This document shows positions 30,998 through 36,767 of a stretch of DNA of 64,000 nucleotides, piece by piece. The DNA is taken from NCBI GenBank assembly GCA_945873305.1, contig CAMCCX010000002.1, forward strand, positions 10,797 to 74,796, written 5' to 3'. Position 1 is the stretch's first letter. The number at the start of each line of letters is the position of its first letter. Origin of the DNA: Akkermansia muciniphila (lineage in GTDB: Bacteria; Verrucomicrobiota; Verrucomicrobiia; Verrucomicrobiales; Akkermansiaceae). The position numbers and the translations under genes were made by a program. A model generated the notes under the pieces. The model saw only the letters and a program-made list of their open reading frames with translations, was not told where the DNA came from and did not search any database.

Positions 30998-32710
30998 CTA
31001 TTTGAAAAGCACGTCCACCCCCATCGCGGACTTGCGGAGGAACTTGGGCATCGCCGCAGGATCACGCGGACGCAGGGCCCGAAAGACAAATCCGGCCAGA
31101 TAGAGGATGAAAAACCGGTCCACCCAGCGATAGCCGCGCTTGCGCCGCAGCAGAATTCCTGCCGCCATCGCAAGCGTGCGGCGTTTCACGGGAAATGGCT
31201 CGAAGGAAACCTTGATCCGGTAGCGCTGGCGTTTTTCCTTGGGCCAACGCAACTTGTAAGCGGCCTTCCCGGCGCGGATCCGCCCGGCGACGGATTCGTC
31301 AAACGGCAGGAAATAATAGCGGCGCGCCAGCAGGACGAGATGGAAGAAATCGCCCATGTGCTCGATGTCGTCCGCCGGAAGTCCGGCTTCGCGCGCCAGC
31401 GAGATCATCCGCGGGAACAAGGCCGCGGCCGCCTCGCCACCCGACAAGGCGGCTTCCGGATCACTAACAAAAAGCCACATGACCTTGCGCACGCCGTGAT
31501 TGATGAAAAGCGAGTCCCAGTAAACATGCAGCAATGGCGGTATCCGGACGCGCCGGAAAAACAGCTTCTGCCTGGCGAAGTCGCGGATATAGAGAAGCTC
31601 TCGAATCACGGTATCGGCGTGATCGAGAAGCTCCACCGCCGCGAACGCCCGCTCCGGTCCGAGCAGGGCTTCCACCGCTGAATCGGCGGATTTCCCGTGG
31701 CGGAAGACGGTGATGGCGGCCTCCGTGTTCAGCCGGATCCAGATGTCCCGGCCAGCGGATTCCAGATAGGCGCGCCGCCGGAAACGATGCCAGCCACCAG
31801 TCTGGCACCACACCGAAATTCCCACGACGTTTTCCACTTGTGAGAGTTCCCGCGCGAAGCGTTCGCAATCCCAGCCGATGAACGACGGATACTCGCCCGC
31901 GCCCTCATACTCCCGCCGGGCCTGCAGTTCCAACAGCTTGCGCTGCTTCACCCGGAAGAACGCGCGGTTGAGCGGGAGATAGCGGAAAAAATCGCTCTCA
32001 CCGTGTTTCATCGAAACGATTAGATTGGGCGAGTCGAGCCCCTCCAGCGTCCTTTCCAGCGTGCCCCGGTGCCAGATCAAATCGCCGATGCGGTGGGCCC
32101 CCACCGTCCACGTCCGGAAGATCAAATCCTTGCCGCGGCGTTCGAACTCGGGCAGCAGGGCCCGCAACAAGCGGTTTGCCTCGCCGGCATTGCGCAGGTG
32201 GATCCGCGTCCGGATCGGATCCTGCACGTCGTTGCCATCGCTCTCGCCGATGCGCAGGATCAATCCGGCAAGCTGGGGGAAATCACTAAGAATCCCCCGG
32301 ACCAGACCCACATAGTAAGCTTCCAACTCCGCCGGGTTCCCGCCCATGACCAGCGACAAGGCGGGCGTCATCGGCACCACATCGGTCGTTAGATAGACCT
32401 TCAGCCCGAACTCGCCGTGCAGCATGTCGAAGAATCCGGTGAATTTTCCGCGCAGGAAATCAATCCGATCCGCCACCTCCGGTTCGTGCAGCGGATGAGG
32501 AGCGAGGTGCGCCAGATCATCCAACGTAACCGCGTTGTATCCTTGCGCGGAGATCTGCCGCGCGAATTCCCGAAGCTCTTCCCCGATCGCCGCCCAGTCG
32601 TCCGGACTCGCATCGAGCAAGTCCATGAAAGAAATCTTGGACCAGTTGACCCGCATCCGGCCGCAGCCGCGAAAAAACGGGCCGATCGCATCGATGAGGA
32701 AAAGCTCCAT
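30998..32710 (-). CDS. Uncharacterised TIM-barrel-like protein, distantly GH67 alpha-glucuronidase-like
   Basis: Clean ~570-aa ORF convergent with the fusion gene; GH67 resemblance comes from my own motif alignment only. Confidence 0.6.
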   Translation of the reverse strand: MELFLIDAIGPFFRGCGRMRVNWSKISFMDLLDASPDDWAAIGEELREFARQISAQGYNAVTLDDLAHLAPHPLHEPEVADRIDFLRGKFTGFFDMLHGEFGLKVYLTTDVVPMTPALSLVMGGNPAELEAYYVGLVRGILSDFPQLAGLILRIGESDGNDVQDPIRTRIHLRNAGEANRLLRALLPEFERRGKDLIFRTWTVGAHRIGDLIWHRGTLERTLEGLDSPNLIVSMKHGESDFFRYLPLNRAFFRVKQRKLLELQARREYEGAGEYPSFIGWDCERFARELSQVENVVGISVWCQTGGWHRFRRRAYLESAGRDIWIRLNTEAAITVFRHGKSADSAVEALLGPERAFAAVELLDHADTVIRELLYIRDFARQKLFFRRVRIPPLLHVYWDSLFINHGVRKVMWLFVSDPEAALSGGEAAAALFPRMISLAREAGLPADDIEHMGDFFHLVLLARRYYFLPFDESVAGRIRAGKAAYKLRWPKEKRQRYRIKVSFEPFPVKRRTLAMAAGILLRRKRGYRWVDRFFILYLAGFVFRALRPRDPAAMPKFLRKSAMGVDVLFK

Positions 32711-32811
32711 TGCCAAGGACATGGACGATCACCTCGCCGGGCATGAGTGACGAGATATCAATATTGACGGAAACGTCACACCCCGCTGACGCCGTGCGCG
32801 ATAAATTCAAA

Positions 32812-33044
32812 TCACGCGACCGCTTCAATCTGTTTATCCACGTCCTCGCGGAGGTTCTCGATGATGAAATCCTGGCGGTCGGGCGTGTTCTTGCCCATGT
32901 AGAAGGCTAGCAATTCCTTCACTCCTTTGCCCTCTTCATACTCGACGTGGTCGAGGCGCATGTCCGGGCCGATCATGAAGCTGAACTCGTCGGGCGAGAT
33001 TTCTCCGAGGCCCTTGAAGCGGGTGATCTCGGCGGCCTTGCCGA
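32812..33044 (-). pseudogene. Orphan 3' fragment (copy B) of the parE-like gene
   Basis: [20 protein letters not shown]...[10 protein letters not shown]; 32837-33044 is collinear with 33963-34170, about 12 mismatches in ~208 bp by hand count. Confidence 0.95.
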
Positions 33045-33142
33045 AAAGCTTGAGCGCATCAAGGTCTCTCCTTAGGTTTAGGTTGGGTGCCTCATCCGCC
33101 TTTGCAATCGAAGCCCCGACACCCTAGAATCCTCACACCGCC

Positions 33143-33394
33143 ATGACCACCGCAGACCTCCACGCCCATATCTGGATCGATCCCGCCCGCTGCGGTGGCC
33201 GTCCCTGCATCCGCGGACATCGCATCTGGGTCTCCATGGTGCTCGATCTCCTCGCCGACGGCCTCACGCCGCAGGAAATCATCGCTTCCCATTACCCGCA
33301 GATCACCCTGGAAGACATTCACGCCGGCATCGCCTACGGTTCCGCGATGTCCCATGAGCGCTTTGTGTCCGTCGCCTTGGAGCCCGTCGCATGA
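33143..33394 (+). CDS. DUF433 family antitoxin
   Basis: IWIDPARCGGRPCIRGHRIWV..VLDLLADG.T..EI...YP.ITLEDI.A...Y pattern. Confidence 0.9.
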   Translation: MTTADLHAHIWIDPARCGGRPCIRGHRIWVSMVLDLLADGLTPQEIIASHYPQITLEDIHAGIAYGSAMSHERFVSVALEPVA

Positions 33395-33582
33395 AATTGA
33401 AGCTCGATGAAAACCTCGGCCTGCGGGGCCGGGACATGCTCGCAGAAGCCGGGCATGATGTTTGCACCGTGCCGGAGCAGAATCTTTGCTCCGCCACCGA
33501 TGAGCAAGTTGCTGTCCGCTGCCGTTCGGATGAGCGCGGCATCGTCAATTCCCGGGAAATCACCATAAGTTGCTTACAGTAA
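33391..33582 (+). pseudogene. DUF5615 PIN-like toxin, 3'-truncated
   Basis: MKLKLDENL...GHDVCTV...ATDEQV...RGIV, then diverges and stops at 63 aa. The expected T.D.DF segment and C-terminal half are absent. Confidence 0.75.
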
Positions 33583-33611
33583 GCCGAAATGAACGTCATC
33601 CAGCGGCGATC

Positions 33612-33875
33612 CGCACTCACTTTGGATCGAAGTCACACCTACTTTGGGCCTTGCTCGCACCCACTTCGGATCGAAGTCACATCTACTTTGGGCCTTGCTC
33701 ACACTCACTTCGGATCGAGGTCACACCTACTTTGGGCATTGCTCACACCCACTTTGGATCGAAGTTACACCTACTTTGGACCTTGCTCGCACTCACTTCG
33801 GATCGACCTCGCATCTACTTTGGGTCCGACCCGCACGCACTTTGGATACGACCCGCACCTACTTCGGATCGAACT
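33612..33875. repeat. Tandem array of 12 x 22-bp units (6 x 44-bp dimers), iteron-like
   Basis: Units start at 33612, 33656, 33700, 33744, 33788, 33832; dimer e.g. CGCACTCACTTTGGATCGAAGT-CACACCTACTTTGGGCCTTGCT. Confidence 0.95.
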
Positions 33876-33928
33876 CGCGAGGACTTTGATTGAAGGCGGA
33901 CGGGCTTGAGATCGAGCAGACCGCCACT

Positions 33929-35794
33929 TCAGGCGACCGCCACCTGCACTTGCACCTGCTTGTCCACGTCCTCGCGGAGGTTCTCGATGATGAAATCCTG
34001 ACGGTCCGGGGTGTTCTTGCCCATGTAGAAGGCGAGCAACTCCTTGACGCCCTTGCCTTCCTCATACTCGACGTGGTCGAGGCGCATGTCCGGGCCGATC
34101 ATGAAGCTGAACTCGTCGGGCGAGATTTCACCGAGGCCCTTGAAGCGCGTGATCTCGGCGGCCTTGCCGAGTTTCGCCAAGGCTTTCTGGCGCTCGTTGT
34201 CGTCGTAACAGTAGATGGTTTCCTTCTTGTTGCGGACGCGGAAGAGTGGGGTTTGCAGGATGTAGAGATGCCCGTCGCGGATCATTTCCGGGAAAAACTG
34301 GAGGAAGAAGGTGAGCAGTAGCAGCCGGATGTGCATGCCGTCCACGTCGGCATCGGTGGCGATGACGACTTTGTTATAGCGCAGGTATTCGATGCCGTCC
34401 TCGATGTTGAGCGCGGCCTGGAGCAGGGCGAACTCCTCGTTTTCATAAACGATCTTGCGCGGCAAGCTGTAGGTGTTGAGCGGCTTGCCACGGAGCGAGA
34501 AGACCGCCTGCGTCTCCACGTCGCGGCTCTTGGTGATGGAGCCGGAGGCGGAGTCGCCCTCGGTGATGAAGAGGGTGGATTCCTCACGGCGCTTGTGCTT
34601 GCTGTCGTAGCGGACGCGGCAGTCGCGGAGTTTTTTGTTATGGACCTTCGCCTGCTTGGATCGCTCTCTAGCGAGTTTTTGGATACCCTTGAGGTCCTTG
34701 CGCTCGCGCTCGGCGGAAAGGATGCGCTTCTGGATCGCCTCGGCGACCTGCGGGTGCTTGTGCAGGTAGTTGTCGAGGTTGGTCTTGAGGAAATTCCCGA
34801 TGAAGGTGCGCAGCGACTCGCCGCCCGGCTCGATGGTGGCGGAGCCGAGCTTGGTCTTGGTCTGCGACTCGAACACCGGCTCGATGATGCGCACGCAGAC
34901 GGCGGCCTCGATGCCGGCGCGGATGTCGGACGGCTCGTATTGTTTCTTGTAGAATCCGCGGATGACCTGGACCAACGCCTCGCGGAACGCGGCGAGGTGG
35001 GTGCCGCCCTGCGAGGTGTTCTGGCCGTTGACGAAAGTATAGTATTCCTCGCCGCTTTCGGGCGTGTGGGTGAAGGCGATCTCGATGTCCTTGCCGACGA
35101 GGTGGATCGGCGGATAGAGCGCCTCGTTTTCCATTTCCTCGCGCAGCAGATCCAGCAGGCCGTCCTTCGAGCGGAACTTCTTGCCGTTGAAATTGATGGT
35201 GAGCGCCGGGTTCAGATAGGAATAGTAGCGGCACATCTTCTCGACGAACTGCTCCTTGTATTTCGCCTTGGCGGGGAAAATCGTGCGGTCGAGATCGAAG
35301 GCGAGGCGGGTGCCGTTCGGCGCCTCGTCGCGCCGCGGGTTCGCCATGTCCACGGTGAGCTGGCCCTTGGAAAACTCCAGCGCCTTGGTCTGGTTGTCCC
35401 GCCAGGACTGGATTTCGAAAAAGTCGGAGAGCGCGTTGACCGCCTTGATACCGACGCCGTTGAGGCCGACGGATTTCTTGAACGCCTCGCTGTCATACTT
35501 CGCGCCGGTGTTGATCTGGGCGGCGCAGTCGAAAAGTTTCCCGAGCGGAATCCCCCGGCCGAAGTCGCGCACTTCCACCCGGCCTTGCTCGTCGATGTCC
35601 ACGCGCACTTCCTTGCCGTGGCCCATGATGTGCTCGTCGATGGAGTTATCCACCGCTTCCTTGAGCAGGATGTAGAGGCCGTCGTCGGGCGAGGAGCCGT
35701 CGCCGAGTTTCCCGATGTACATGCCGGGGCGCATGCGGATGTGTTCGCGCCAGTCGAGGGATTTGATGTCGTCTTCGGTGTAGTCAGCAGCCAT
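33929..35794 (-). CDS. parE: Type IIA topoisomerase B subunit (ParE/GyrB-like, short PVC/Bacteroidota type)
   Basis: [69 protein letters not shown]. Confidence 0.9.
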
Positions 35795-35927
35795 GAGGAA
35801 ATTCGTTTCGGAGTTCCTAAACGGTTGACGGGACGGGTGCAAGGGCGGCGATGCGGTGGAAATCAATCGCCTTGAAAATTCCCGTTGCCAGCGGCGGGGA
35901 CCTCCCCCAGCGTGCGCCCGAAACCTC

Positions 35928-36767
35928 ATGGATTGGACTTACAACATTCTCGGACCCGACCCCGCCGCCGGCCTCATGGTGGTGCTCATTCTCGTCATCA
36001 TCGAGGGCGTGCTGTCCGTGGACAATGCCGCCGTGCTGGCGACGATGGTGATGCGCCTGCCGGAACACCAGCGCGGCAAAGCGCTGAAATACGGCATCAT
36101 CGGCGCCTATGCGTTCCGCGGGCTCTGCCTCGCGCTTGCCGCGTGGCTCATCACCATCTGGTGGCTGGAACCGCTTGGCGGGCTTTACCTGCTGTGGCTC
36201 GCATGGAGCCATTTTTCGAGACACGAGTCCGTCATCGAGGAGGGCGTCGAGGCCGTGGAAACGGAAGGCAACTTCCTCTACCGTTGCACCATCGGATTGT
36301 TAGGGCCGTTCTGGGCCACCGTCGTCGCCGTGGAGGTCATGGACCTTGCGTTCTCCATCGACAACGTCGTCGCGGCGATCGCCTACGTGAAGAACTATCC
36401 GATGCCATCGAAGCTGGTGCTCGTCTGCACCGGTGTTTTCCTCGGCATCCTGGCGATGCGGTTCGCGGCCCAGGGCTTCGTGAAGCTCATGCAGCGCTAT
36501 CATTTCCTGGAAACCTGCGCCTTCATCGTCATCGCCGTGCTCGGCGTGAAACTCGTTCTCAGCGTGCCTCGTCATTTCCTGGCGAAAGGCCACGAATTCC
36601 ATGACTACCTCGCCTCCCAGTCTCAAGCGCTTTCAGCGGCGGGAAATGCCATCCACGATTTCCTCGCCAGCCATTACTTCGACATGGGGACCTCCGCCCT
36701 AACACTCTTGATCTTCATCGTCCCGGTCGTGCTACACCGGATTAAAAACGGGAGCTCGCCCGCCTGA
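35928..36767 (+). CDS. TerC-family (YkoY-like) membrane protein
   Basis: [32 protein letters not shown]. Confidence 0.9.

Follow-up and report, generated by a model that had tools for sequence, protein, structure and literature searches.

Judged by sequence comparison, the array of 22-bp repeats beside the 3′ end of a topoisomerase gene in the window (the whole 64-kb stretch of DNA that was analysed) belongs to an undescribed family of Verrucomicrobiota arrays built of tandem 22-bp units; no description of such arrays was found in the searched literature. In related genomes the array stands upstream of one constant partner, here called gene X, at the border of variable islands of defence and toxin-antitoxin genes. 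With moderate confidence, we read the array as an iteron-like platform with many protein-binding sites, for which the gene X product would be the likely binder and which a deletion has orphaned in the window. The window copy itself is most probably a relic of an insertion.

Direct reading gave 12 head-to-tail units, each of exactly 22 bp, which fill positions 33612–33875 of the forward strand. A degenerate thirteenth unit was likewise read directly, and it was aligned with sister contigs (Table 1). The first eight units alternate between an A form, CGCAC(T/C)CACTT(T/C)GGATCGAAGT, and a B form, CACACCTACTTTGGGCCTTGCT, with the tails ATCGAAGT and GCCTTGCT, respectively. The resulting 44-bp higher order is confined to these eight units, and units 9–13 are degenerate monomers, which agrees with the alternation degenerating toward 33875 that was originally predicted. 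Units 1–8 are highly homogeneous, a feature that fits recent expansion by slippage or unequal exchange as well as it fits selection. Tandem Repeats Finder reported a period of 44 over 33612–33824 (4.8 copies, 86% matches, score 321) and rows of period 22 at 33614–33846 and 33788–33872, and it detected no comparable array elsewhere in the 64-kb window. The pattern ACTTYGG-N15-ACTTYGG-N15-ACTTYGG matched 10 times, always inside the array, and never in 100 shuffles. The B-unit motif occurred 4 times against 0.06 expected. Reading, Tandem Repeats Finder and shuffles together bore out the twelve phased repeats of the original prediction. A core of the form C(G/A)CA-N3-ACTT(T/C)GG was read in each window unit, and the predicted form of it, C(A/G)CA..(C/T)ACTT(T/C)GG, fitted 11 of the 12 units, unit 8 beginning with T.

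All three forward frames are open across the array. Among 5.8 billion proteins, none was homologous to its translation at E ≤ 0.001, and the Pfam matches to its ORFs were below cut-off; with a period of 22, not a multiple of 3, the array is therefore not protein-coding. The units abut without spacers and the neighbouring ORFs carry no cas domain, so that the earlier exclusion of both a protein repeat and a CRISPR locus stands. Rfam 15 gave no match to the array at the gathering score, and no tRNA was found in the window. Folding energy of the array was ordinary on both strands (z = −1.2 and +0.7), and no promoter or terminator consensus was seen at the array. GC content around the array was 0.53–0.59, and no AT-rich unwinding element was seen in the window. 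The topoisomerase stop codon (33929) lies 32 bp from the thirteenth unit and 54 bp from the twelfth.

Table 1. Features of the array and its surroundings in the window.
Feature	Position	Strand	Basis or remark
574-aa gene, no family match	30998–32722	−	Pfam, NCBIfam, PADLOC
Distal direct repeat, displaced copy of the 3′-terminal ~220 bp of the topoisomerase gene	32823–33044	−	92% identical to 33949–34170
Sigma-70-like promoter of the toxin-antitoxin (TA) pair, TTGCAA-17-TAGAAT	33102–33130	+	Conserved in relatives L124–L129
DUF433 antitoxin-type gene, intact, 83 aa	33143–33394	+	Domain match
DUF5615 (PIN-like toxin) gene, truncated	33391–33582	+	Profile positions 1–52 of 110 only
Leader, 64-bp inner flank of the array	33548–33611	+	Reading
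13-bp palindrome GCTTACAGTAAGC in the leader	33572–33584	+	Reading
GCCGAAATGA in the leader	33583–33592	+	Recurs at the same relative place before the L135, L156 and L160 arrays
Units 1–8, four 44-bp A/B pairs	33612–33787	+	Reading and Tandem Repeats Finder
Units 9–12, degenerate monomers	end at 33875	+	Reading
Thirteenth unit, degenerate, CGCGAGGACTTTGATTGAAGGC, outer array edge	33876–33897	+	Reading; aligned with sister contigs
GyrB/ParE-family type IIA topoisomerase B-subunit gene, listed ORF	33929–35929	−	Convergent with the array
Proximal direct repeat, within the intact 3′ end of the topoisomerase gene	33949–34170	−	Sequence comparison

The array and the TA pair are enclosed by two direct repeats of the topoisomerase 3′ end, 222 bp long, 92% identical and 1126 bp apart; the TA pair and the array therefore lie in an inserted segment of 1.1 kb. 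In related strains, the topoisomerase gene is followed directly by other sequence (loose ends at 33947/33949). The two repeat copies diverge in their last ~10 codons: one ends in DKQIEAVA and a stop, the other in a different stretch of 11 residues. The true start of the topoisomerase is probably near 35794 (MAADYTEDD...), and GyrB models outscored ParE models for this gene, with all scores below the curated cut-offs. A (GCAGGT)n hexanucleotide repeat encodes a (QV)n tail of the topoisomerase (window 33935–33960; L136 4691–4709; L144 170–188; contigs and loci are cited by our numbers), and 6 bases are missing at 33945 in a contig of one metagenome (run X4). The 574-aa ORF on the far side of the insertion is conserved in several metagenomes.

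Inside the inserted segment, the toxin gene is cut. One metatranscriptome contig matches 33388–33547 and then continues as an intact toxin (...LDLDFANP), and it is also at this base, 33547/33548, that the window parts from the intact DUF5615 homologue of L127. The toxin gene was thus broken there, and the leader and array were joined to it by deletion or fusion. Together, the direct repeats and the cut at the junction speak for that part of the original prediction in which the array is a remnant of the element that brought the TA pair. The DUF433 antitoxin and its promoter remain intact beside the cut toxin, as an orphan antitoxin. Close DUF433 homologues (80–92% identity) are often alone or beside other genes, and the toxin of one relative (L130) has an in-frame stop. 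A perfect heptanucleotide microsatellite, (CATCCGT)14-18, lies directly upstream of the DUF433–DUF5615 promoter in L127 (1497–1609), L128 (426–524) and L129 (1–127), and its length varies among samples.

A wide genome scan for three ACTTYGG cores in 22-bp phase returned at least 120 loci, mostly unrelated arrays from many phyla, and the window's own species was not among the matches listed. A narrower pattern applied to metagenomes returned 19 loci, including the window's own species (L136, L144). Near-identical metagenome contigs (L001–L003, L136, L144) carry the same array plus one extra 21-bp unit, and near-identical contigs with the same layout came from several freshwater and marine metagenomes. 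The metagenome scan gave homologous arrays at L135, L146, L148 and L145/L150. L127 was reached independently, through an 86%-identical DUF433 protein, and holds a degenerate family array upstream of an intact DUF433–DUF5615 pair. The 22-bp period is common to L127, L135, L146, L148, L150, L153, L155, L156, L159, L160 and L162.

The family core is bipartite, CGCAC-N2-ACTTTGG followed by a variable spacer, and it is present in the window array. In a logo of per-array consensus units, positions 1–5 (CGCAC), 8–14 (ACTTTGG) and 22 were conserved, and positions 6–7 and 15–21 were variable. Because the search pattern required the core, L135, L146, L148 and L150 are no evidence of its conservation; the core was also present in loci found without array sequence (L127, L153, L155, L156, L160). 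In Haloferula sargassicola (L155), an array of ~23 units has the unit CGCACCTACCYTGGATCGAACT, almost the same as the last unit of the window, CGCACCTACTTCGGATCGAACT; that last unit differs from the Haloferula consensus at 2–3 positions. Searching plasmid DNA with the array and IMG/VR with the pattern gave no match. Many unrelated and very regular 22-bp arrays occur in other phyla (L073, L072/L076 of Acidobacteriota, L019, L031, L116, L123 and others), with their own short inverted repeat in each unit. The array of L073 (132–336, Parabacteroides hominis) lies in a locus with three tRNA genes.

The inner flank is common to L127, L135, L146 and L148 and encodes a 233-aa protein, gene X, which is intact in L135. 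The array was found upstream of gene X in all ten independent gene X loci: L127, L135, L146, L153/154 (Luteolibacter), L155, L156, L157/158, L159, L160/161 and L162/163. Seven of the ten were fetched without reference to any array, and all seven have an array of 22-bp period. At these loci, ~170–210 bp separate the array from gene X; the two are divergent, and the orientation of the array is fixed. Between the two stands a conserved element of ~45 nt, TGYCAGAAAnnGTTAGnTnGGGAAGAAGCAAAT, and, in L135, L153 and L160, an AT-rich stretch. Inspection of the conserved element by eye gave no convincing spacing for a sigma-54 or sigma-70 promoter. Arrays without gene X also exist (L145/L150). The survey of the monomer and its neighbours that was proposed with the original prediction brought out a constant partner, gene X, but no Rep or Par gene beside the related arrays and no plasmid match.

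A word-indexed search found 256 homologues of gene X, all annotated as ‘hypothetical’, with Luteolibacter, Haloferula and Verrucomicrobiota as the named hosts. A profile search of the full library gave 2,309 clusters at 50% identity, and the loci examined were all from Verrucomicrobiota. The most divergent copies (54–55% identity) keep GCAC and the 22-bp period, with CCCAGAC or CCCGGGC as the second half-site; at one gene X locus the second half-site is GATTTGA. The family has no match in Pfam, NCBIfam, PHROGs or PADLOC, and no relative in the PDB by sequence. The AlphaFold model is all-alpha with nine helices and a mean pLDDT of 84, with a pTM of only 0.48, and Foldseek gave no significant fold match against PDB and BFVD. 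No recognisable DNA-binding domain or fold was found in gene X. On one face of its N-terminal helix there are four near-invariant arginines (R7, R8, R11, R14), an arrangement that would be compatible with nucleic-acid binding. Gene X is absent from 72,556 plasmids, 50,697 phages and IMG/VR. In the window, tblastn with six family members gave nothing below E 0.1. Rep, Par, integrase and gene X are all absent from the window, as expected from the earlier statement that no cognate protein is encoded nearby.

In most loci, gene X is followed by variable cargo of defence, restriction-modification, abortive-infection-type, helicase/nuclease or toxin-antitoxin genes. HicAB, AIPR, ORF6N, T5orf172, DEAD/PLD helicases, MmeI/Eco57I-type and Mrr/methylase genes were seen behind it, as were a ParE toxin, a glyoxalase and an integron-cassette-type domain. 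On both sides, the genes next to the module change from genome to genome; they include dtd, tyrS, a DEAD-box helicase, an ECF sigma factor, LysR and AIM24. A layout like that of the window was seen in L156, where the array, gene X and cargo lie between direct repeats of the dtd 3′ end (208 bp, 86%). There the outer edge of the array is ~48 bp from the intact dtd stop, the same geometry as at the topoisomerase gene of the window. A general rule that the array abuts the 3′ end of a target gene was rejected: it is true in the window, L156, L146, L155 and L162 and fails in L135, L157, L159 and L160. Which end of the neighbouring gene faces the array, 3′ or 5′, varies among loci, and the loci therefore have no attachment geometry in common. 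No integrase was seen within the fetched stretches of the related loci. The module is part of variable, probably mobile DNA.

An 86-bp piece of the 3′ part of gene X is repeated behind an inserted HicA/HicB-type pair in L153 (5395–5480 and 6130–6215), and many database members of gene X are C-terminal fragments only. Gene ends have therefore been repeatedly duplicated by insertions in these genomes. From these sequences, gene X itself seems to be an insertion target.

As seen in relatives, the complete module consists of an array of ~2.5–23 units, the divergent gene X and then genome-specific cargo. Since the bipartite core is present in each 22-bp unit, the same motif recurs once per two helical turns, on one face of the DNA; this single conserved motif per two turns suits the geometry of a protein-binding array, as originally predicted. 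In the reading that we prefer, such a platform would load many copies of one sequence-specific protein. We infer that this protein is most likely the product of gene X, the sole constant neighbour, with which the units change. Once bound, the platform may control or organise the module, for example by autoregulation, titration or pairing of copies. A further proposal, that gene X is a DNA-binding protein of new fold which on the phased array directs replication, recombination, insulation or expression of the cargo, is possible but tentative.

In the window, the sequence shows that the array arrived with the 1.1-kb insertion at the topoisomerase 3′ end. An internal deletion then joined the 64-bp inner flank to the middle of the DUF5615 toxin gene, and the same deletion presumably took out gene X and other cargo. 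This deletion model is based on one junction and on the 10-nt motif GCCGAAATGA. That motif is all that the inner flank of the window has in common with L135, L156 and L160, and the ~45-nt element near gene X is absent; the shared motif lends modest support to a loss of gene X by deletion. In cis, the window array would then be a relic, active only if gene X were encoded elsewhere in the genome.

The first alternative is that the array is the remnant oriV or partition centromere of an integrated plasmid-like element; once this was excised, an initiator or a centromere-binding protein would occupy the units. We consider this unlikely, although it is the best placed of the other explanations. Phased direct repeats of 22 bp are the classic geometry of iterons. 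Theta plasmids carry such iterons, for example the seven 22-bp iterons of the R6K gamma ori, and also those of pSC101 and RK2. The present family resembles plasmid and SGI1 iterons in its same-orientation direct repeats, the ~22-bp period, one motif per unit and a co-varying adjacent gene. It differs in having no Rep-family initiator, in an all-alpha partner without known fold and in that this partner, gene X, was found on no plasmid record. It also differs in length (12–23 units here against 3–7), and the window copy has no partner at all. The AT-rich stretch that stands between array and gene X at L135, L153 and L160 would suit an origin; in the window, at its GC content, no AT-rich unwinding element was seen, nor was there a GC-skew turn. 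A replication origin for the whole window was rejected, as no GC-skew turn was present. No DnaA box or unwinding element was identified at the array, the search being made without a phylum-specific DnaA-box consensus. Genes for Rep, ParA/ParM/TubZ or ParB/ParR were found neither in the window nor conserved beside related arrays, and no Rep domain was seen in the neighbouring ORFs.

Tandem-repeat centromeres include F sopC (12 × 43 bp) and R1 parC (10 × 11 bp). In common with them, the window array is long and tandem, has a higher-order unit of 44 bp and contains a short palindrome in alternate units. Unlike these centromeres, it lacks a ParA/ParM/TubZ NTPase or known centromere-binding protein, in the window and beside all related arrays.

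Integrated islands with iteron origins are known: SGI1, an island situated at the trmE 3′ end, carries four iterons of 17 bp beside rep in its oriV (PMC7433901). By analogy, SGI1 oriV is the nearest precedent for an island-borne array, and in two cases, the window and L156, the module likewise lies in an integrated island at the 3′ end of a housekeeping gene. The IncA/IncC iteron consensus yaTRTGGG...gcTGCACG, read across the unit boundary as TGCACG-ya-TRTGGG, resembles CGCACGG-ac-TTTGGG and is a lead only (PMC7433901).

Arrays linked to a weakly RPA-like initiator gene also speak for an origin. Those of Planctomycetaceae (L068/L089), Thermomicrobiales (L006) and Pyrinomonadaceae (L042), from three phyla, have the 22-bp period and an ACTTTGG(GG) core, in a true iteron-like layout, 130–150 bp upstream of the conserved gene; the likeness in core was imposed by the search pattern. 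The units read CACTTTGGGGTnCGG (L068 5631–5966, minus strand; L089 2384–2742; L006 4114–4452; L042 960–1181), and the downstream protein of ~500 aa has a weak match to replication initiator protein A (PF10134). Their spacer, which matched no Rfam family, shows striking conservation (…CCTAACTCTTAACTCT…CAACAACAACAAG…GGTGGTGGTGCTTTTTT). The partner differs from gene X, to which it is unrelated, and the array is co-directional with it. Shared ancestry of gene X with the RPA-like Rep was rejected (hhalign probability 0.2%), and no RPA-like Rep homologue was found in the window. An all-alpha gene X, unrelated to this Rep and absent from plasmids, phages and IMG/VR, speaks against an origin.

Tn7-type ends were also compared. 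They have 22-bp TnsB sites beside the 3′ end of glmS, which are few, irregular and inverted at both ends, with a 5-bp target duplication. As in Tn7, 22-bp sites lie near the stop codon of a conserved gene and the element genes read away from these sites. In contrast with Tn7, the present case has a single long tandem array, confined to one end, a duplication of ~200 bp and no Tns genes.

Next in rank, and with a rather small chance of being correct, is a neutral minisatellite, that is, a slippage-prone 22/44-bp repeat without function at any locus. Copy number differs by one unit between near-identical strains and from ~2.5 to ~23 units between loci. Higher-order units of 44 and 66 bp occur in family arrays and point to expansion by unequal exchange, and unrelated 22-bp arrays are numerous in other phyla. 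Against neutrality, the period, the orientation, the position relative to gene X and the 12-nt bipartite core persist at 55–80% gene X identity, while the spacers are free; neutral non-coding DNA would be randomised at that distance. A neutral VNTR with neither a conserved core nor an associated protein, which the original prediction named as the outcome that would count against it, was thus not what we observed: copy number varies, yet the core is conserved across genera and a protein is associated with it.

Improbable, too, is a function of the array as RNA, either as a repeat-containing non-coding RNA or as a protein sponge, possibly bound by the arginine-rich helix of gene X. The fixed orientation of the array and the arginine-rich N-terminus of gene X are in line with it. 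The A-unit can form the hairpin ACUUCG-GAU-CGAAGU, in which both variants (C/U, A/G) keep G-U pairing on the plus strand only, and GGA is present in 8 of the 13 units. However, there was no Rfam match, the folding energy was no more than ordinary on either strand, and neither a promoter nor a terminator consensus lay at the array. Other arrays preserve the linear core but not the hairpin. The array was found in no RNA run, and among metatranscriptome contigs there was coverage of the TA genes but not of the array; this missing coverage is weak evidence because contigs break at repeats.

The array could also be a decoy or an amplified operator for the DUF433/DUF5615 pair, which we regard as very improbable. 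The TA promoter spacer CTTTGCAATCGAAGC is close to CTTTGGATCGAAGT of the unit, the A-unit contains a 6-3-6 palindrome, and L127 has a degenerate array upstream of a homologous TA pair. However, GGATCGAA is family-wide in arrays without a nearby TA pair (L155, L160), the promoter motif varies among TA homologues (ATCGCAG, TTCGAAG), and most close DUF433 homologues have no array (L124–L126, L130–L133). As the main explanation, a TA operator is contradicted by this distribution and was rejected. The TA promoter region 33097–33124, CTTTGCAATCGAAGCCCCGACACCCTA, resembles one unit plus the start of the next, CTTTGGATCGAAGTCACACCTA; this resemblance is probably coincidental because GGATCGAA occurs family-wide in arrays without a TA pair. 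A chromosomal site tied to the topoisomerase gene, such as a topoisomerase or fork-barrier site, which the original prediction had also offered, is scarcely credible: only the position just past the stop codon favours it, while the array sits inside an insertion absent from related strains and the same family is found at at least 10 other loci beside unrelated genes, a distribution that contradicts it.

Taken by itself, the window is of modest consequence, as a record of an insertion and a deletion at the end of an essential gene. Its copy of the array shows ordinary decay, and the array family is worth study in its own right. If the pairing of gene X and array is functional, it defines an unstudied nucleoprotein module, which would mark the sites at which defence and toxin-antitoxin genes collect in a phylum that has been little studied. 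Gene X would then represent a new fold for binding DNA (or RNA), whose cognate site is already at hand. The module would also serve as a marker for finding islands in genomes of Verrucomicrobia, and possibly as a replication or maintenance tool where genetic tools are lacking.
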